This document shows positions 6,159 to 63,487 of a DNA stretch of 64,000 nt, piece by piece. The notes under the pieces were generated by a model. That model was not told the DNA's origin. It saw nothing but the letters and a program-made list of their open reading frames with translations, and ran no database searches. The translations under genes and the position numbers were made by a program. Position 1 is the first letter of the stretch, and every line of letters starts with the position of its first letter. The DNA is from Patescibacteria group bacterium (GTDB lineage: Bacteria; Patescibacteriota; Minisyncoccia; Phycocordibacterales; Phycocordibacteraceae): positions 6,945 through 70,944 of the forward strand of contig JANLHF010000039.1 in assembly GCA_024653825.1 (NCBI GenBank). Reading direction: 5' to 3'.

Positions 6159-6824
6159 ATGAAATTTCACTTAATCACACTTTTCCCCGAGGCCTGTGAC
6201 GCATATTTGAGCGCGTCCATCATCGGTCGCGCGCGGAAGGAAAAAAAGATTTCAATAAAATATCAGAACCCCCGCGACTTCGTCGCGGGGCCGGCGGGTA
6301 GCTATAAGAAGGTAGACGAGAAGCCGTATGGTGGTGGCCCCGGCATGGTAATGATGGCACTTCCAATCGTCAAAGCCGTCCAGAAATCACTTGGGGGTCG
6401 GACCCCCAAGTTGAAGAATCCTGTCATCGTCTGGTTTAAGCCGGGGGCGAAGCAGTTCACCAATAAAGATGCGGACGCGCTCGCGAAATATAGCGACGTG
6501 GTGCTCGTCTGTGGTCGCTACGAGGGCATAGATGAGCGCGCGAAGAAGATTTTAAAAACAATGGCGACAGTAAAAGAATTCGCCGTCGGCGAAGCGGTCT
6601 ACACCGGCGGGGAAGTCCCAGCGCTCGCGATAGTAGACGCCGTCACGCGTCGTCTGCCGGGCGTCCTCGGCAAGGACGCCTCCGTCGAGGAGCGCCGCAT
6701 CGCCTCCTCGGCCGTCTACACCCGTCCCGAAACGATTTCATACAAAGGCAAGAACTATAAAGTGCCAAAGGTCCTCAAAACCGGTCATCACACAAAGATT
6801 GACGCGTGGCGGAAGAAGAAATAA
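6159..6824 (+). CDS. trmD: tRNA (guanine37-N1)-methyltransferase TrmD
   Basis: The YGGGPGMVM motif and the SPOUT C-terminal region are present. The gene contains an in-frame 23-bp palindromic insertion (SLGGRTPKL). Confidence 0.85.
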   Translation: MKFHLITLFPEACDAYLSASIIGRARKEKKISIKYQNPRDFVAGPAGSYKKVDEKPYGGGPGMVMMALPIVKAVQKSLGGRTPKLKNPVIVWFKPGAKQFTNKDADALAKYSDVVLVCGRYEGIDERAKKILKTMATVKEFAVGEAVYTGGEVPALAIVDAVTRRLPGVLGKDASVEERRIASSAVYTRPETISYKGKNYKVPKVLKTGHHTKIDAWRKKK

Positions 6825-18691: not shown

Positions 18692-18805
18692 TGTATCTCC
18701 TTTTCATACATATGCCCGATGTATTCGGGTTGCAGGGAATCCTGCCAAGAACTTCAACCTGCCTCTCTTTATACACCATCTCCATAAATTATCAAGGTAT
18801 CCCCA

Positions 18806-18832
18806 AAGATTGTCCTATAGGACAGAGTTTGG
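18806..18832. repeat. 27-bp direct repeat, copy 1, containing the perfect 14-bp palindrome TGTCCTATAGGACA (putative operator)
   Basis: AAGATTGTCCTATAGGACAGAGTTTGG here and AAGATTGTCCTATAGGACGAAGTTTGG at 19462..19488 flank the wHTH gene. Confidence 0.7.
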
Positions 18833-18857
18833 GTAGGCGGTGAGGTAGCATGTATGC

Positions 18858-19445
18858 ATGGGAACACTAGAAAAAAGTGCTAAGAAGGAACGGCGATGGG
18901 GAGCGTTTCAACAGGCGATGCTCTACGCCGCACTCGGTGGCATCATGGTCGCTACAGGTGCGGTTCCGGACTTCCGCAAGATTTTGAAATACTATGCGGG
19001 AAGCAAAAAAGACTCTCGTTTCAACTACCGTGCGAAGACGGTACTTGGGCGCCTTGTCGCCAAAGGATTCATCAAGTTTGAAGAGCGTGACGGGAGACGC
19101 TATGCGCGCCTGACTGAAACTGGTAAACGAGTGCTGGACCTGGAGCTGTTGAAAGATGAAGGTGTGCGGAAACCAAAACGTTGGGATAATCGATGGAGAG
19201 TTGTTATTTTCGACATCCCGGAACGTAGACGGAAAGTACGTGTCAATCTGCGCTCTTTTATGGGGAAGTACGGATTTGTAAGATTGCAGGACAGCGTCTG
19301 GATATATCCATACGATTGTGAAGAGCTCATTGCCCTCGCGAAAGCACAGTTCCGTATCGGAGTGGATGTGCTCTATATGATCGTCGAGCGGCTCGAGAAT
19401 GACGCGCCTCTGCGAAAACAATTCGGCTTGCCAGCCGCAACCTGA
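18858..19445 (+). CDS. PaaX-like transcriptional regulator (N-terminal winged helix plus a C-terminal Cas2-like/ferredoxin-like domain)
   Basis: The wHTH region is RLVAKGFIKFEERDGRRYARLTETG. The C-terminal WRVVIFDIPERRRKVRVNLRSFMGKYGFVRLQDSVWIYP resembles Cas2/PaaX_C. Confidence 0.55.
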   Translation: MGTLEKSAKKERRWGAFQQAMLYAALGGIMVATGAVPDFRKILKYYAGSKKDSRFNYRAKTVLGRLVAKGFIKFEERDGRRYARLTETGKRVLDLELLKDEGVRKPKRWDNRWRVVIFDIPERRRKVRVNLRSFMGKYGFVRLQDSVWIYPYDCEELIALAKAQFRIGVDVLYMIVERLENDAPLRKQFGLPAAT

Positions 19446-19461
19446 ATATCAGGTATGACCT

Positions 19462-19488
19462 AAGATTGTCCTATAGGACGAAGTTTGG
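19462..19488. repeat. 27-bp direct repeat, copy 2 (same 14-bp palindrome), immediately after the wHTH gene stop
   Basis: 25 of 27 positions are identical to the copy at 18806..18832. Confidence 0.7.
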
Positions 19489-20190: not shown

Positions 20191-21051
20191 ATGAAGCAGA
20201 AAAGGGCAGTGAGGAACCACGGGAAGAAAAAAAGAGTACCGATTAAGCACTGGAGCCATTCCAGCCTAATGTCCTTCCTAAGGAATCCGCTTGCTTGGTA
20301 CAAGCGCTATGTGGAGGAGATATACGATACGCCGACGACGCCGGCGGCGGTTATCGGCAGCGCGGGGCACCTCGCGCTGGAGCACTATTATTCGGGTGCG
20401 CCCAAGGATATCGCGATACAAAAAGGGTTGGAATACGTGCGCAGTATTGGCGACTTTGAAATTAATTTTGGTCAAGCGAAAAGCAAAGCGGCGCGGCGCG
20501 CGAAGCGCGCCGCGATGGAGGCCGACTATCTACGCGCCATCGGGTATTACCTCGCGCGTCCGCCGAAGCACAAAGTGCTCGGCGTGGAGGTACGGGGTGT
20601 GGTTGAGGTTGAAGGGCTGCCAATCCCCATCAAGGCGATTTCAGACTTGGTGGTGGAATCAAAAGTGGAGAAAGGAGCGGTGGACATTGTGGACCATAAA
20701 TTCGTCGCTTCTTTCAGCAAGGGAGGCGCGGCGAAATCGCTCTTCGTGATTCAGGCACTTTTTAATTACTACACCGTACGGGAGATGTTCGGGAAGCCGG
20801 TCCGGCGCTTTATCGTGTATGAGTGTAAGAAAACAAAGAACGCCGACGGATCCCCGCAGATGCGACGATACGAAATCGATTTCCAGAAGCACGCTCAAGA
20901 TTTCAAAGTCTTCCATCGGCTCATCAACGATGCGACCGAGGAGATTTCGCGCCGGCGCGTGTATCTACCAAACCCCTCCGATATGTTTGAAGGCGACAGT
21001 TCTTTTGATATTTATCGGTTGGAATTAGTTTCCGAGGGCCTGGTCGATTAA
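20191..21051 (+). CDS. PD-(D/E)XK nuclease superfamily protein (RecB/Cas4-like core without an Fe-S cluster)
   Basis: The N-terminal WSHSSLMSFLRNPLAWYKRY and the D...DIVDHK catalytic motifs are present. The start is an internal ATG at 20191, preceded by a TATACT box. Confidence 0.6.
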   Translation: MKQKRAVRNHGKKKRVPIKHWSHSSLMSFLRNPLAWYKRYVEEIYDTPTTPAAVIGSAGHLALEHYYSGAPKDIAIQKGLEYVRSIGDFEINFGQAKSKAARRAKRAAMEADYLRAIGYYLARPPKHKVLGVEVRGVVEVEGLPIPIKAISDLVVESKVEKGAVDIVDHKFVASFSKGGAAKSLFVIQALFNYYTVREMFGKPVRRFIVYECKKTKNADGSPQMRRYEIDFQKHAQDFKVFHRLINDATEEISRRRVYLPNPSDMFEGDSSFDIYRLELVSEGLVD

Positions 21052-24877: not shown

Positions 24878-25671
24878 TACGTATAGGATACAACAATCAC
24901 ACGGGGCTTGCTGTACTGGTCAGTGCGTATCTCGGCCGTGAGGCCCTGTTCCACAAAAAGCGCGGCCGCAGCGGCCGCGTGTCCGCGGTCGCACTCGATC
25001 CACGCGACTCCGCCTTTGGCGAGATGCCTTGGGAGCGCGAGCGCGATGCGGCGGATATAATCGAGTCCGTCATCTCCGGCCATGAGTGCGAGAGAGGGTT
25101 CGTAGTCGGCGACGCTCGGCGGAAGCACATGGCTAGTGGGGACGTAGGGCGGGTTCGTAGCGATGACATCAAATTTCATATCCTCAAATGGTTCAAGGAG
25201 GTCGCCGATGCAAATGTGTGCGTGGCTCTCGTCCAGATTATTTTCTTGAATGTTTTTTAAAATAGTCGCCTTGTGTGCGGGATCGATCTCGCCGAAATAG
25301 ACTTGTGCATTGGGAATCTTCGCGAGCGCCGCACACCCGATGGCGCCGCTCCCTGCACATAAATCAAGGAATTTCAGTTGCTCGCCGGCAGGCCCAAAAG
25401 TGGGCGCGCTCCGGGCCGCTAGGCCAAGTCTTACCCCCACTTTTGGGCCTGCCGGTTCGCTTTTCAACAATTGCTCGGTCCACCACTCAGTCTCGGGGCG
25501 GGGGATGAGTGGCTTGGAATCTAGATAGATTTTCAGACCCAGAAAGGGTTGCCAGCCGATGACGTAGGCCAGCGGCTCGCCTCCGGCGAGCCGCTTCCTA
25601 TCTTCTTCAAAATGGGGGGTTCGTACCCCATCATATTTTTCTTCCAGAAGATGTTGTTCGTCTTTAGTCAT
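24877..25671 (-). CDS. prmC: Release factor glutamine methyltransferase PrmC/HemK
   Basis: It has the NPPY motif and an LDLCAGSGAIG SAM-binding site. It carries an in-frame 72-bp hairpin-element insertion. Confidence 0.85.
   Translation of the reverse strand: MTKDEQHLLEEKYDGVRTPHFEEDRKRLAGGEPLAYVIGWQPFLGLKIYLDSKPLIPRPETEWWTEQLLKSEPAGPKVGVRLGLAARSAPTFGPAGEQLKFLDLCAGSGAIGCAALAKIPNAQVYFGEIDPAHKATILKNIQENNLDESHAHICIGDLLEPFEDMKFDVIATNPPYVPTSHVLPPSVADYEPSLALMAGDDGLDYIRRIALALPRHLAKGGVAWIECDRGHAAAAAALFVEQGLTAEIRTDQYSKPRVIVVSYT
25384..25455. repeat. E2 hairpin element, copy 1, in-frame inside prmC: a 21-bp perfect inverted repeat around a 30-nt conserved core
   Basis: The sequence is gccggcaggcccaaaagtggg - CGCGCTCCGGGCCGCTAGGCCAAGTCTTAC - cccacttttgggcctgccgg. 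The core is shared with the copy at 63436..63466. Confidence 0.7.
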
Positions 25672-31372: not shown

Positions 31373-33076
31373 TTATGCCGAAGGTGCAGGGCGGATGAGG
31401 TCGTGCTTGATATCGGCAAACGTGCCGCCAACCTTCTTGCCGGGGTTGAAAATCCCTTGCGGGTCAAACATCTTTTTCGTTTTTTCAAAAAGTTCTATCA
31501 TTTCTGCACCGAAGAGCATCGGGAGATAGGGCGTGCGCACGATACCGTCATTGTGCTCGCCGGTCGTGGTGCCACCGGCCTCGATAACCATTTTATACAC
31601 CTTGGGCGCGAGGTCGAGAATGACTTGGCGATTCTCCTCCTTGGTGAGGTCCATCAGCGGAATGATGTGAATGTTACCGTCGCCAATGTGGCCCGCAACG
31701 GTATAAATCATATTGTCTTTGTATTCATCGAGAAGAGCATTCAGCTTCGGCAAGAATGTCGGATAACTTGAAGGCGGGACGACGAAGTCGTCGATGAAGG
31801 GCGAGGAGACGAGTCCGTGGAGATTCTTGCGCAAGAGGTTGAAGCTCTCGCGGCGCACTATCCAATACTTCTCTGACTCTTTTTCATTTTTTTCAATCTT
31901 CGTTTGTAAATGCAAGTCGGCCAAGGCCTCCTTGGCCGCCAGAGCTTTAGCGTCGGCGGCTTCGATAGTGTCTTCGGCAAATTCGGCCATTAATATCATC
32001 TTGGGCACACCGCCGGTCGCGACCATCGCCGCCTCGGGGATGAAGTCGATGCCGAGCCGCACCGCCTTTATAAGCCCCATTTGCGAGAGCATTTGGGGCA
32101 TAAACTTCACCGCGAGGGTGAAGGTGTGGTCGTCGTAGCTCTCAAACGATTCGGGCTTCTGGAGCAGAACGCGCCGGACAATCTCGGGAAGGATGTTGAG
32201 GTCGTAGAGGAAGCACACAAGCATCGCACGGTGCTCCTTGGGCTTCACCAACCCGAGCTTCGCCTGCGTCCAGAGCGCGAGCGTGCCTTGCGAGCCGCAG
32301 ACGAGCTTCGCAAGGTTGAAGCTGCCGGCGGTCGAATCTTTCACGCTCCAGAGCGCGTAGCCGGCAGAGTTTTTAGATACCTTCGGTCGGTGGCCTTCAA
32401 TGAGCCCGGCGTTCTCGGTGAGAAGCGCGTCCATCTCGCGATAAATCCCGCCTTCAAGCGTGTTCAACTTTTTCTTTTCTTCTAGTTCTGCGTATGACAG
32501 TGCCTTAAAGGTAGTTTGTGAGCCATCAGAGAGAACGACGTCGACTTCTTCGACATACTTTTCTGTCTTGCCGTACTTCAGTGTGCGCTCGCCGCCGGAA
32601 TTGTTTGCCACGATGCCGCCCATCGCGGCTATCTCGCGCGAGGCGGGGTAGGAGGGGAGTATTAAACCTTTTTCCAGTGTCGCCTTTTCAAAATCCCTAT
32701 AAAACACCCCTGGCTCCGTCACCGCGTACCCGTCAATTTCACTTGGGGGTCGGACCCCCAAGTCAGAAGTGACTTCGCCCATATGATTCATATGCTCGGT
32801 AAAAGAGACCACGACGCCGGTCGTGAGAGGGCCGCCCGACATGTCGGTACCGGCGGAGCGCGCCGCGAGCGAAATTTCAGTACCTCGACTTCGCTCGGCA
32901 CCTACGACGCGAACGAGTTCGGAAACATCGTTCGCGTCTACGGGATACACCACCAGCTCCGGCATCCGCGTAAACAGGGACGTGTCGCGACTAAGCTTCG
33001 CAAGCGTCGCGCCGTCATCACTCACCTCGCCCTTCATCACCCCCTTCAGCGCATTTTTCAAATCTTCTGTGGTCAT
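31373..33076 (-). CDS. FAD-linked oxidase (GlcD/D-lactate dehydrogenase family)
   Basis: It has the FAD_binding_4 N-domain (RSAGTDMSGGPLT) and a C-terminal GGTTTGEHNDGIVR region. The start is an internal ATG at 33076. An in-frame E1 palindrome encodes TSDLGVRPPSE. Confidence 0.8.
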   Translation of the reverse strand: MTTEDLKNALKGVMKGEVSDDGATLAKLSRDTSLFTRMPELVVYPVDANDVSELVRVVGAERSRGTEISLAARSAGTDMSGGPLTTGVVVSFTEHMNHMGEVTSDLGVRPPSEIDGYAVTEPGVFYRDFEKATLEKGLILPSYPASREIAAMGGIVANNSGGERTLKYGKTEKYVEEVDVVLSDGSQTTFKALSYAELEEKKKLNTLEGGIYREMDALLTENAGLIEGHRPKVSKNSAGYALWSVKDSTAGSFNLAKLVCGSQGTLALWTQAKLGLVKPKEHRAMLVCFLYDLNILPEIVRRVLLQKPESFESYDDHTFTLAVKFMPQMLSQMGLIKAVRLGIDFIPEAAMVATGGVPKMILMAEFAEDTIEAADAKALAAKEALADLHLQTKIEKNEKESEKYWIVRRESFNLLRKNLHGLVSSPFIDDFVVPPSSYPTFLPKLNALLDEYKDNMIYTVAGHIGDGNIHIIPLMDLTKEENRQVILDLAPKVYKMVIEAGGTTTGEHNDGIVRTPYLPMLFGAEMIELFEKTKKMFDPQGIFNPGKKVGGTFADIKHDLIRPAPSA

Positions 33077-34055: not shown

Positions 34056-34302
34056 GACAATGTCCTCCCAAAGAAAATCTGTCCAGGGTCATAGTAGAGA
34101 ATCGGATGCAACAAGTCAAAGTGAAGAACAGCCGAAAGACACCTTTCTTCCCACCCTCCAGGGCACGAGTAATTCTTTGAACGGCTCAGACCGTCTGAGG
34201 CGTTTGGCGCCATTATGATACTCTTGCAAAAAATTGGGACTTTGGTACTATCTTAAACGGCTGCATTTTTGGCCGCACTTCAACCAAAGAAGGAGAAGTC
34301 TA

Positions 34303-34827: not shown

Positions 34828-36528
34828 ATGACTCAAGGCGAGGCGCTTACGATTTTAAAAACGGGCGCGAATGTGTATCTCACCGGCGAGCCGGGGAGCG
34901 GGAAGACGTACACCATAAATGAATTCGTCGCGTGGCTGCGCGCCTCGGGCATCGAGCCGTCAGTAACCGCGGCGACCGGTATCGCGGCGACGCACGTCGC
35001 GGGGATGACGCTCCACTCCTGGAGCGGTATCGGTATTAACGAATCGCTCTCCCGCGCCGACGTCGACCGCATCGCGACCAAGGAGCACATCGCGAAACGT
35101 ATTACGAAAGCGAGGGTGCTCATTATTGAGGAAATTTCAATGCTTTCTTCTGCGACATTCGAGATGGCGGACGCTGTTTGCCGCGAGGTGCGTAGAGTCG
35201 ACAAGCCCTTCGGCGGGCTCACAGTCATCTTGGTGGGCGACTTTTTCCAGTTACCACCCGTCTCGCGTAATAGAGAAGTCGCTTTCGCCTATACGTCGCC
35301 GGCCTGGCGCGAATTAAATCTCATCACCTGCTATCTCACCGAGCAGTATCGCCAAGACGACAGTGAATTCCTCAGCGTGCTCTCCGCTATTCGCTCGGGA
35401 GAAGTGGAAGAGATGCACTACGAGCAACTTAGGACACGGCGTGTCCTAAATAAGGAAGAGGAGCCGGCGGATGCGCCAAAACTGTTTTCGCATAATGCCG
35501 ATGTCGATCGCATCAATGCGGCAGAACTTGCAAAACTAAAAGGAACATCGAAGAAATTCAGCATGAGCTCAAAAGGAAAGGATAGTTTCGTGGAGGGACT
35601 GAAGCGCGGCTGTCTCTCGCCTGAGGTGTTGGAGCTGAAGGAGGGCGCGGCGGTGATGTTCACCAAGAACTCGCCCCAAGGGAGATTTGTGAACGGTACG
35701 CTCGGCGTGGTGAGCGGATGGGGTGCTGATGGGGCGCCGATTGTGAAGACAAAAGAGGGGCTACGTATCACGACCGAGCCGATGGAGTGGCAACTTGAAG
35801 AGCAGGGGAAGGTGAAGGCGAGCGTCTCGCAGATACCGCTTCGGCTCGCCTACGCGATGACCGTGCATAAGAGCCAGGGGATGAGTATGGACGCGGCGAT
35901 TATGGATCTCTCGAGAGCCTTTGAATACGGACAGGGTTATGTCGCGCTCTCGCGGGTGCGCCGCCTGAGCGGGGTGTATCTCACGGGGCTCAATCAACGC
36001 GCGCTTGAAGTGCATCCGGAGATTCTTGAAAAAGATAAAGACTTCCGTGCCGCCTCAGAGGCGGCACGCGATGCGTTCGCCCCTCGACCAGACTCGGGGC
36101 AGGCGGGAATGTCTGAAACCGAGAAAATAGCGATGCAGAAGAAATTCGTCAAAGCGATGGGAGGAGCCTGGATGGAAAACACAGGGAGTAGCAAGCAAGG
36201 GGTAGGGAGTAGGAAAAAAGATTCGGCAGGGCTGCCGGGGAGACTGGCAGAGACGTTACAGACCGTGCGCGACGCGAAGAGTTTAAAAGAAGTCGTGAAG
36301 TCGCGCGGGCTCGTCGCCTCGACAATCGTGAAGCATCTGGAGGAGCTCGCAGAGATAGGGAAGCTCGCTCGTTCTGACTTCGCGCATCTCGTCCCCATAG
36401 ACATTGTTGATGAAATCCATGAAGCGCTCAAAGATGAAGACACGGATCGTCTTTCACCGGTATTCCATTCTCTCCACGGCCGGCACTCCTTCGAGACTAT
36501 CCGTCTCGTCCGCCTGATGCGGGATTGA
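34828..36528 (+). CDS. Pif1/RecD-family (AAA_30) DNA helicase
   Basis: It has a Walker A (GEPGSGKT), a TVHKSQGMSMD motif and a C-terminal extension. Confidence 0.8.
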   Translation: MTQGEALTILKTGANVYLTGEPGSGKTYTINEFVAWLRASGIEPSVTAATGIAATHVAGMTLHSWSGIGINESLSRADVDRIATKEHIAKRITKARVLIIEEISMLSSATFEMADAVCREVRRVDKPFGGLTVILVGDFFQLPPVSRNREVAFAYTSPAWRELNLITCYLTEQYRQDDSEFLSVLSAIRSGEVEEMHYEQLRTRRVLNKEEEPADAPKLFSHNADVDRINAAELAKLKGTSKKFSMSSKGKDSFVEGLKRGCLSPEVLELKEGAAVMFTKNSPQGRFVNGTLGVVSGWGADGAPIVKTKEGLRITTEPMEWQLEEQGKVKASVSQIPLRLAYAMTVHKSQGMSMDAAIMDLSRAFEYGQGYVALSRVRRLSGVYLTGLNQRALEVHPEILEKDKDFRAASEAARDAFAPRPDSGQAGMSETEKIAMQKKFVKAMGGAWMENTGSSKQGVGSRKKDSAGLPGRLAETLQTVRDAKSLKEVVKSRGLVASTIVKHLEELAEIGKLARSDFAHLVPIDIVDEIHEALKDEDTDRLSPVFHSLHGRHSFETIRLVRLMRD

Positions 36529-61089: not shown

Positions 61090-61116
61090 GAACGGCTCAG
61101 ACGGTCTGAGCCGTTC
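61090..61116. repeat. E4 27-bp perfect palindrome, GAACGGCTCAGAC-G-GTCTGAGCCGTTC
   Basis: A second copy (GAACGGCTCAGAC-C-GTCTGAGGCGTT) is at 34179..34204. Confidence 0.65.
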
Positions 61117-61378: not shown

Positions 61379-61606
61379 ATGTTTATAAAAGTATTCGTTA
61401 CGCCGAGTGCGAAGCGCGAAAGAATAGACGAAAAGGGCGATGCGTTGCTCGTGGCAGTAAAAGAGCCAGCAATGGGGAATCGCGCGAATACGCGCGTGCG
61501 CGAGATTGTCGCCGCACGGGAAGGTGTGCCGGTGGGGAAGGTGCGCATACTGACAGGACACCGTTCTCGGGTTAAAATGGTAAGTGTTACTAGCCCCGAC
61601 GCTTAG
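61379..61606 (+). CDS. DUF167/YggU-family protein
   Basis: The DUF167 pattern is VKVTPSAKRERI...LLVAVKEPAMGNRAN... Confidence 0.65.
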   Translation: MFIKVFVTPSAKRERIDEKGDALLVAVKEPAMGNRANTRVREIVAAREGVPVGKVRILTGHRSRVKMVSVTSPDA

Positions 61607-61645
61607 TCGGGGCCCCGACTAAGCGTCGGGGCTGATTTTTCCACT
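61596..61645 (+). terminator. 40-bp perfect palindrome (two inverted 20-nt units) followed by a T-tract; strong terminator or cruciform
   Basis: The sequence is gccccgacgcttagtcgggg|ccccgactaagcgtcggggc, then TGATTTTTCC. It overlaps the yggU stop codon. Confidence 0.65.
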
Positions 61646-62008: not shown

Positions 62009-62856
62009 CCTTTGTATTCCGTTTCGCGTTTGCCTTCGGGAATGACGCGCAGGACACGGAAAACGCCCGCGGCGTTTTCCGCGGAGATGATTTTCATACG
62101 CTTTCCGTTTTCAAAGAAATACGTGCCGATGCTGTCAGCGTAGGCACGATACTTGTTCCAGTTTTCTTGTGCGGGCGCAGTGAGGTCGAGAAGACCGTCT
62201 TCTTTTGCGAGTTTACGCGCGCGCGAAGCGCGCGCGGCGTCCTGGGCGACTGGCGTAATCTCATCGCGTTCAAATACAGGGAGTGTAGTGGTGAGAAGCG
62301 TTGCGCCCATCTCGATGAGTCGCGGGCGCAGTTCACGCGCAGTCTCGTCAGGCACTATCGTCGTTTTTTCTTGTGCGAGGATGTCGCCCGCATCAAGCTC
62401 GCGCACCATTTTCTGTATCGTCACACCGGTCTCAGCTTCGCCCATGAGAAGCGCGGTCTCGAGCGGCGTTGCGCCACGATACTTCGGTAGGAGCGAGTAG
62501 TGCACATTTAAAACGCCTTTCGGGAATGTGGCGATAAGCGCCTCGGGAAATATTTTTCCGTAGGCGACGACGACGGCGTAGTCAGTGTGCTGCGACGCGA
62601 TTGCCGCAATCGCGACGTCATCCAATTTTTCTGGCGTGAGGACTGGAATAGTGTGCGCGAGCGCGAGCTCCTTGGTGAGCGAAGGGGTGAGCGCGAGGCC
62701 ACGTCCTTTTGGCGCGTCCGGAGACGTCACGACAAGTGTCGGTATAAAACCGTGTTCGATTAGAAGCGCGAGCGTGTCGCTTGCGACCTTCGGCGTGCCA
62801 AAATAGACGAAGCGAAGCGAGCCCCTTTGTTGGGCGAACTTATGCGACTGCGGCAT
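62005..62856 (-). CDS. fmt: Methionyl-tRNA formyltransferase
   Basis: The HYSLLPKYRGATP motif is present. The gene overlaps the def stop, giving a def-fmt operon. Confidence 0.85.
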   Translation of the reverse strand: MPQSHKFAQQRGSLRFVYFGTPKVASDTLALLIEHGFIPTLVVTSPDAPKGRGLALTPSLTKELALAHTIPVLTPEKLDDVAIAAIASQHTDYAVVVAYGKIFPEALIATFPKGVLNVHYSLLPKYRGATPLETALLMGEAETGVTIQKMVRELDAGDILAQEKTTIVPDETARELRPRLIEMGATLLTTTLPVFERDEITPVAQDAARASRARKLAKEDGLLDLTAPAQENWNKYRAYADSIGTYFFENGKRMKIISAENAAGVFRVLRVIPEGKRETEYKG

Positions 62857-63409
62857 GGTGGATGTGGATAAGATTCTCCGCGTGGTCGACGAAGAGGACG
62901 CCGTTGAGATGATCGATTTCGTGCTCGAATATCTGCGCTATGAGCCCGCCGCCCCCGCGCTCAAACTTTGTGCCGTCGACGCGACGCGCGCAGACGGTCA
63001 CGCGCTCGTGCCTATTGGTTGTGCCGTACACGCCGCGGACGGAAAGACACCCCTCATCCGCCTTCGCGCGTTTGCGGGAGGTCTTCACAATCTCCGGATT
63101 GATATACACTTCAACCTCAGCACTTGGGGGTCCGACCCCCAAGTCTGACTTGGGGGTCGGACCCCCAAGTGGAGCTTCGGGAAGAGGTGGTAGGGTGCGA
63201 TCTTTCCGCACGATGAAGATGCGATAGGGAATGCCGATCTGTGGTGCGGCGAGCGCGACACCCTCGAGTTCAGGATCGAGCGCTTCGGTCATATCGTCAA
63301 TAATCTTTGCGAGCTTTGGCGTATCGAAAAACTCCTCGGGCACCGGCTCGGCCGTCCCGCGGAGCACCTCGGCACCGTCTTGCACGATTTCTTTCATGTC
63401 GTTTAGCAT
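62840..63409 (-). CDS. def: Peptide deformylase
   Basis: It has the three deformylase motifs GVALAAPQIG, EGCLS and HEIDHLNG. A tandem in-frame E1 palindrome pair encodes LGGPTPKSDLGVGPPS in a surface loop. Confidence 0.85.
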   Translation of the reverse strand: MLNDMKEIVQDGAEVLRGTAEPVPEEFFDTPKLAKIIDDMTEALDPELEGVALAAPQIGIPYRIFIVRKDRTLPPLPEAPLGGPTPKSDLGVGPPSAEVEVYINPEIVKTSRKRAKADEGCLSVRGVYGTTNRHERVTVCARRVDGTKFERGGGGLIAQIFEHEIDHLNGVLFVDHAENLIHIHHAAVA

Positions 63410-63416
63410 AGCTCGT

Positions 63417-63487
63417 CGGCAAAGCAAAATAAAGGCCGCGCTCCGGGCCACTAGGTCAAGTCTTACTACCTTTATTTTACTTTGCCG
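63417..63487. repeat. E2 hairpin element, copy 2 (intergenic, immediately upstream of def): a 19-bp inverted repeat around the conserved core
   Basis: The sequence is cggcaaagcaaaataaagg - CCGCGCTCCGGGCCACTAGGTCAAGTCTTAC - ta - cctttattttactttgccg. Confidence 0.7.

Follow-up and report, generated by a model that had tools for sequence, protein, structure and literature searches.

An in-frame palindromic repeat in genes of Patescibacteria, a probable member of the REP/REPIN-RAYT systems

The window analysed here is a 64,000-nt stretch of a Patescibacteria group bacterium genome (assembly GCA_024653825.1, contig JANLHF010000039.1, positions 6,945 to 70,944). It contains a 23-bp perfect palindrome, named E1, that is read in frame within the gene of a flavin adenine dinucleotide (FAD)-linked oxidase and recurs in trmD and def. 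It is likely that E1 belongs to the systems formed by repetitive extragenic palindromic (REP) sequences, their inverted doublets (REPINs) and REP-associated tyrosine transposases (RAYTs), and that its copies within genes survive only in frame and in tolerant loops.

The oxidase copy occupies positions 32741-32763 (ACTTGGGGGTCGGACCCCCAAGT) and consists of two 11-nt arms and one central base. The letters confirm what a preliminary description of this DNA had stated, namely a palindrome encoding TSDLGVRPPSE in frame. The general form of the element is ACTTGGGGGTC-(G/C)-GACCCCCAAGT, and only the central G/C varies between copies. Apart from this base, the copies in trmD, def and the oxidase gene match exactly, as had also been claimed. 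There are four copies without mismatches in the window, at 6389-6411, 32741-32763, 63122-63144 and 63148-63170. This corresponds to eight strand-matches, whereas the mean in 100 dinucleotide-preserving shuffles is 0.00. No degenerate copies with one to six mismatches were found in the window, and candidates with seven or eight mismatches occur only at chance level.

All four copies are intragenic and in frame. They occupy three unrelated genes and are read in both orientations and in two frames; none of the frames of the palindrome contains a stop codon. The copy in trmD (gene at 6159-6824, plus strand; Pfam tRNA_m1G_MT) reads SLGGRTPKL and sits in a variable loop. The def gene (62840-63409, minus strand; Pfam Pep_deformylase) carries two copies as a REPIN-like inverted doublet, a 51-bp perfect palindrome at 63121-63171 that reads PLGGPTPKSDLGVGPPS. 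It falls in a loop of 30 residues, compared to 7 residues in PDB 6caz. The oxidase copy is predicted to fold with -13 kcal/mol as single-stranded DNA (z -4.9) and -22 kcal/mol as mRNA, and the mRNA hairpin of the def doublet reaches -56.8 kcal/mol. No Rfam family was found at the E1 sites, the sole Rfam match in the window being a tRNA. The identity of an intrinsic terminator was rejected, as the copies lie inside open reading frames (ORFs) and lack a T-run; that of a CRISPR repeat was rejected as well.

The oxidase gene (31373-33076, minus strand) belongs to the GlcD/D-lactate dehydrogenase family and has the Pfam domains FAD_binding_4 and FAD-oxidase_C. It encodes 567 residues from the annotated start, and the ORF is open upstream to 33214, giving 613 residues. 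The closest database protein (P0001, 100% identity) comes from an NCBI metagenome-assembled genome (MAG) of Patescibacteria; further named matches are labelled Parcubacteria, Paceibacterota or Kaiserbacteria. The peptide TSDLGVRPPSE corresponds to residues 149-159 of the longer frame, or 103-113 of the annotated protein. In the numbering of the longer frame, it is contained in the N-terminal FAD_binding_4 domain (residues 85-235) and not in FAD-oxidase_C (residues 327-593). Thus its initial assignment to the C-terminal region of the oxidase was wrong.

Alignment with orthologs and mapping onto a structure had been proposed as checks of this site, and both were made. Codon-level comparison with the empty ortholog L003 and the filled orthologs L001, L115, L116 and L118 (numbers with L denote retrieved loci) delimits an insert of 36 nt at 32735-32770 (minus strand) between conserved Val (GTC) and Asp (GAC) codons. 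It encodes TSDLGVRPPSEI and is read as ..EV-TSDLGVRPPSEI-DGYA.., within the peptide stretch EVTSDLGVRPPSEIDGY. The net gain over the empty allele ..GTC GGC GAC.. is 33 nt. Among 120 orthologs with at least 75% identity, in which the segment between ..HMGEV and YAVTEPG.. was scored, 50 are empty at this site. Conservation of the peptide in distant GlcD homologs, initially named as the observation that would speak against the insert, was not found: the PDB glycolate oxidase 9qgz has a 9-residue alignment gap facing 'dlgvrppse'. By these alignments, E1 in the oxidase gene is an insertion relative to homologs. In the AlphaFold model (mean confidence score pLDDT 75.8) it is part of the loop that joins strands 99-104 and 116-120, and pLDDT drops under 50 for residues 107-111. 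It is predicted to lengthen a beta-hairpin turn of the FAD-binding domain by about 11 residues (TSDLGVRPPSE), and most likely has no role in catalysis.

The same site holds different palindromes in different genomes. Besides the 50 empty orthologs (VGDD-type, short ..EVGDDYA..), 21 contain an ACTTGG-type palindrome, encoding for example SNLEARPPSE, HLGVRPPSE or tandem forms such as SNLAVQPPSRSGANLEASLPSG. A second, GTAGGACG-type palindrome (NVGRTTSYID) is present in 16 orthologs, and 33 contain other inserts. The site has changed between filled and empty at least 27 times on a neighbour-joining tree built with the site masked, a count that is approximate, as the tree is simple and recombination is possible. 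The inserts of L001, L115, L116 and L118 are palindromes at the DNA level. The one in L001, ACTTGGAGGCC-A-GGCCTCCAAGT, has the ends of E1 and two compensated arm changes; L118 contains CACTTGGGTGT-CCA-ACACCCAAGTG, L116 two tandem units, and L115 a GTAG-type palindrome, GTCAATGTAGGACGT-ACG-ACGTCCTACATTGAC, a type that was not found in the window. The orthologs of TrmD follow the same hot-spot pattern, with LGGxTxKL types, VGRTTSYM types and short forms. Three pairs of TrmD and oxidase orthologs (P0252/P0118, P0283/P0104 and P0351/P0102) are empty at both hot spots. The members of each pair apparently share a contig (137109, 266839 and 170086 bp, respectively), which is partly confirmed for the first pair. 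These pairs hint that whole genomes either have or lack the repeat system.

One possibility is that such palindromes are made locally by replication template-switching at short quasi-palindromes, for instance GTCGGCGAC in the empty oxidase allele, so that no transposase is needed. Indeed, the empty allele of L003 (GAA GTC GGC GAC) is itself a small palindrome (4+1+4), filled alleles extend it as GTC..palindrome..GAC, and arm changes are always compensated, as quasi-palindrome correction predicts. However, this leaves unexplained how one and the same 23-mer came to be at unlinked positions of unrelated genes. The same is true of the def doublet, 49 nt of which recur unchanged in an unrelated ORF of about 1000 residues on another contig (L037), again as a doublet. 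Nor does it account for the repeats that bracket transposase genes, or for an oxidase insert identical to the RAYT-flanking repeat on the same contig, both described below. Thus a local origin is very improbable, and template-switching may rather be a contributor to the perfect matching of the arms.

Across Patescibacteria, the family has the form (C/T)(A/C)ACTTGG-N5-N-N5-CCAAGT. A scan for the exact core in one genome per species yielded 13 stretches, 11 of which come from Patescibacteria MAGs. The MAG H41-bin079 has six copies of E1, one of them at the same trmD site. A scan of metagenomes with a degenerate pattern produced 136 matches, and 131 of these are perfect palindromes. They fall into three compensated variants, GGGTC (80 copies), AGGTC (26) and AGGCC (25), and the variant is uniform within every metagenome contig bearing at least two copies. 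Inverted doublets recur as a unit: besides those in def and L037, there is one in L122, the halves of which are exact reverse complements of each other. The degenerate pattern had no matches in viral contigs, and hence nothing there indicates that E1 is a phage element. In the dnaE gene of the Hainich H41 population, a metagenome contig contains an in-frame E1 doublet, and the MAG version is 25 nt shorter, which leads to a frameshift (L011 2714-2745 versus L054 7957-8006). The repeat has probably been collapsed in the assembly of the shorter version, unless the two are strain variants.

Only 57 of 135 family copies in metagenomes (about 42%) are inside open frames at a depth of 40 codons or more; the remainder are in short or intergenic contexts. 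Hence the initial wording that the element targets unrelated genes can be kept in part: it is dispersed DNA present in unrelated genes, but targeting is an overstatement. The copies in genes are most readily understood as the ones that passed selection for frame and loop tolerance. Those deep in genes use all three frames, the peptides LGVxPPS and LGGxTPK being commoner than TWGSDPQ.

Gly/Pro-rich peptides of this kind are typical loop formers, which would suit a selected protein motif (LGGxTPK or LGVxPPS). The frameshifted MAG at the dnaE doublet, in turn, demonstrates that assemblers can mishandle such repeats, and the repeat might then be an assembly artefact. But the same DNA gives unrelated peptides when read in three frames and both orientations, copies occur outside ORFs too, and the peptide is missing from distant homologs. 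The element is also present in independent NCBI, JGI, ENA and Logan assemblies. As the window has four identical copies in unrelated genes, in two frames and both orientations, a protein motif is ruled out, and the two explanations together retain hardly any probability.

The palindromes are linked to a transposase gene of the Y1 (RAYT-like) type. A Y1_Tnp gene lies 10 kb from one of the oxidase orthologs. When used as a tblastn query, it matched 12 loci (E 1e-13 to 1e-29), all of which had been retrieved by the palindrome pattern alone. The gene is flanked by family repeats in L064, L032, L088, L106, L033, L051, L102, L120 and L121. Where the whole gene is in view, the usual layout has four repeats, some loci showing fewer. 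One repeat is 2-24 bp upstream of the start codon and one 2-17 bp past the stop codon, and two are internal and in frame, at about residues 58 and 145. The repeats are exact E1 in L064 and L032. In general, copies within one locus share the variant of this locus; for instance, ATTTGG..CCAAAT occurs at three of the four positions in L102. These positions are fixed in and around the gene across a clade of at least 55% identity. Both heptapeptides encoded by the internal repeats could be compared in 75 homologs. The two are identical in 51 of them, and the mean difference is 0.41 compared with 1.89 for shuffled pairs; therefore the internal copies co-vary within a genome.

The transposase itself passes the threshold of Pfam Y1_Tnp (28.7 and 38.5, gathering score 23) and has conserved NHFH (HUH) and SAYVNLN (Tyr) motifs. 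Its sole NCBIfam match is REP_Tyr_transpos, at 24-30 bits, well below the cutoff of 80. About 3,000 clusters of homologs were found in Patescibacteria, and some of these are named 'REP element-mobilizing transposase RayT' by JGI. Searches of PDB by sequence, with a single sequence or a 52-sequence profile, gave nothing significant, the top matches being spurious ones to RNase A. The best PDB fold match of the AlphaFold model (pLDDT 77) is 4er8 (E 2e-4, probability 1.0), the E. coli REP-associated tyrosine transposase bound to a REP hairpin, followed by the TnpA proteins of ISHp608 and ISDra2.

Two contigs bear both an oxidase ortholog and a RAYT gene and so allow a test within one genome. In Ga0334722_10000054 the RAYT gene is preceded, at 24 bp, by the repeat ACTTGGGTGTCCAACACCCAAGT, and the oxidase insert is the identical 23-mer. 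In JAUSFZ010000028.1 the RAYT repeats are ACTTGGGGGT-TTC/GAA-ACCCCCAAGT, and the doublet in the oxidase gene has the same genome-specific core and loop. The halves of this doublet are exact reverse complements, although each has two stem mismatches. Thus it is the doublet as a whole that remains symmetric, as REPINs do.

Two further observations concern the RAYT loci. In L088 (about 1440-1455) and L106 (about 47-60) TATAAT directly follows the repeat upstream of the gene (..CCAAGTagTATAAT..), at a distance of about 14 bp from the start codon, and an overlap between the hairpin and the promoter of the transposase is possible. A second Y1_Tnp gene, about 33% identical to the E1-associated clade and with a different hairpin (CTGTGGACATCTGACATCCACAG) on both sides, was found in L118 (521-1231). 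It is on the same 170-kb contig as an E1-type RAYT gene (L120), and therefore one genome has two types of such transposase-repeat units (REPtrons).

In the window, the trmD DNA shares 80% identity with L015 and with L084, and 75% with L066 and with L076. Nevertheless, E1 is identical at 23 of 23 positions in L015 and L066, silent positions included. L076 has a fully compensated AGGCC variant, directly followed by a decayed older copy. One explanation is that the hairpin is kept for a host function at the DNA or mRNA level, the link to the transposase being secondary. It might be a pause site of translation or transcription, a target of RNase III (the def doublet would form a 24-bp RNA helix) or a binding site of a dimeric protein. 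The silent conservation at a trmD divergence of this order, the fixed positions of repeats in and around the RAYT gene, and the very stable RNA hairpins would all agree with this. On the other hand, an insert is lacking altogether in many orthologs of TrmD and in half of the close orthologs of the oxidase, unrelated palindrome families use the same loops, copies decay in many lineages, and homogenisation by a repeat system explains the conservation equally well. A host function is thus unlikely as the primary explanation, although it is compatible with membership in a REP/REPIN-RAYT system.

As the same protein site carries the repeat variant of each particular genome, the copies seem to be renewed or homogenised, by re-insertion beside an old copy or by gene conversion, and not simply inherited and left to decay. 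The conservation at trmD and the structure of L076, together with copies in tandem or in decay that occur at the sites in the oxidase and RAYT genes, point to renewal at existing repeat sites. By analogy with the E. coli TnpA-REP complex and the IS200/IS605 enzymes, the transposase would bind the hairpin on single-stranded DNA, cut it and rejoin the ends. This could spread or replace copies, singly or as inverted doublets. In small genomes with almost no intergenic space, many insertions would fall in genes. Selection would then remove those that break genes, so that the remaining copies keep the frame and sit in tolerant surface loops. The inserts are probably translated, as def and trmD are essential and their frames are intact. 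We also considered a further possibility, that the RAYT actively renews hairpins at fixed positions within genes by site-specific homing or conversion, orthologous loops being overwritten again and again by the current master repeat of the genome. The positions in question are the two loops in the coding sequence of the RAYT itself and the loops of the essential genes def, trmD and dnaE. The hairpins might in addition have gained a host or autoregulatory role. This would then be a domesticated HUH system for the upkeep of DNA hairpins in coding regions, and more than selfish debris. This proposal is tentative, and we hold it for rather doubtful.

Several facts weigh against assignment of E1 to the REP/REPIN-RAYT systems. 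Neither E1 nor its flanks contain a GTAG or CGTC tag, one of which is present in the described REP superfamilies. No Y1 transposase gene was found in the window. The copy number seems to be low, with four copies in 64 kb and at most six exact copies in the closest species-representative genome. A host function of the hairpin could be an alternative reason for the strict conservation at trmD. Comparison of filled and empty alleles yields neither a target-site duplication nor a constant insert length, as boundaries are blurred and the difference is +33 nt in the oxidase gene and a net +9 nt in trmD. Finally, to our knowledge, RAYT-catalysed transposition of REPs in vivo has not been demonstrated for any system.

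The window contains other repeats of interest. Perfect palindromes are abundant: with an arm length of 8 nt or more and a loop no longer than 7 nt, 46 were counted (3-12 in shuffles), and 29 have arms of at least 9 nt (0-4 in shuffles). Many of them are inside ORFs, for example at 35429-35449 (LRTRRVLN), 36046-36068 and 20492-20514, and others resemble terminators (AAAACGC..GCGTTTT). A second repeated palindrome, GAACGGCTCAGAC-G-GTCTGAGCCGTTC, has two copies (96% identity) at 61090-61116 and 34179-34204, apparently intergenic and without a T-run. It was absent from every locus fetched, and may represent another REP-like family. At 61592-61633, at the junction of two divergent ORF-like frames, there is a 42-bp perfect palindrome with no spacer, AGCCCCGACGCTTAGTCGGGG followed by CCCCGACTAAGCGTCGGGGCT. 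A 38-nt direct repeat (87%) with the palindrome TTGTCCTATAGGACA occurs at 18795-18832 and 19451-19488, on either side of an ORF of about 200 residues (18849-19445); the arrangement might represent operator sites or a small cassette. Another direct repeat, GGGCGCGCTCCGGGCCGCTAGGCCAAGTCTTAC, of 33 nt (91%), occurs at 25402-25434 and 63434-63466, the second copy being directly upstream of def. Elsewhere in the oxidase gene, the helix ..VGRAR-xA-GA.. of the orthologs L001 (10175-10201) and L003 (10176-10200) is encoded with a palindrome with 12-nt arms (GGCCGCGCCCGC..GCGGGCGCGGCC). The window (about 32850-32900) and some relatives have an alternative version of this helix, VGAER-SR-GTE, which looks like a mosaic pattern among orthologs.

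The E1 family accounts for odd Gly/Pro-rich insertions (LGGxTPKL, NLGVxPPS, TWGSDPQV) in proteins across Patescibacteria. Such insertions are a potential source of error in alignments, phylogenies and structure models, and they can break assemblies, as in the MAG with the frameshifted dnaE. The loops that are used repeatedly mark insertion-tolerant sites in conserved enzymes. Their use by different repeat families, together with the match between copies in genes and copies flanking the transposase, makes this a natural system for studying how REPs move and are homogenised. The known range of REP-RAYT systems would thereby come to include the candidate phyla radiation, with its scarce intergenic space and with repeats located largely in genes.

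Two classes of tagged REPs, GTAG and CGTC, were described by Di Nocera et al. 2013 (PMC3733652), the GTAG class being associated with RAYT genes. In the same work, REPs were reported inside genes of Opitutus, Rickettsia (RPE-4 and RPE-6, placed among CGTC REPs) and Thauera, including dnaE and repair genes, with in-gene dimers encoding about 17-30 residues. E1 and its family share with the REP/REPIN-RAYT systems of E. coli, Pseudomonas and Stenotrophomonas a dispersed palindromic repeat of 20-40 bp and inverted doublets. In both, repeats flank a Y1/HUH transposase gene (for E1, in related loci), variants are genome-specific, and in-frame copies occur in genes, dnaE included; the transposase model best matches the E. 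coli RAYT-REP complex. On the other hand, E1 has no tag, and its unit is a perfect palindrome without orientation, as only the central base differs. REPs are mainly extragenic, whereas all four E1 copies of the window are inside genes. The E1-associated Y1 clade is divergent, far under the NCBIfam cutoff for RAYTs, and its gene holds two in-frame repeats in its own coding sequence.

Other systems are more distant. The Rickettsia palindromic elements (RPE) are also palindromic repeats in frame within functional genes of a reduced genome, tolerated owing to their location in surface-exposed segments. RPE-1 is about 100-150 bp long, compared with 23-27 bp for E1, and the two are not known to be similar in sequence. 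We know of no dedicated transposase reported for RPE-4 and RPE-6, whereas E1-type repeats flank a Y1 transposase. The IS200/IS605 elements likewise have a Y1 HUH transposase that recognises DNA hairpins. Their left-end and right-end hairpins differ and move with their gene as multi-copy units, whereas E1 hairpins are identical, symmetric and far from any transposase gene (none in 64 kb). Miniature inverted-repeat transposable elements are also small, non-autonomous and able to sit in frame in genes. E1 is shorter and has no terminal inverted repeats around an internal segment; a target-site duplication, a mark of such elements, was not detected at the oxidase and trmD sites, nor were consistent boundaries.

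In the literature, whose coverage was incomplete, we found nothing specific on REP/RAYT systems in Patescibacteria or the candidate phyla radiation, nor on this family. The kind of element, a REP within genes, is already known from other bacteria such as Rickettsia and Opitutus. The tag-less family, the transposase locus with four repeats and the repeated re-use of the same protein loops appear undescribed. The E1 system differs from known REPs also in that conserved enzymes have loops shared by different families of repeats, and in its host phylum, Patescibacteria.

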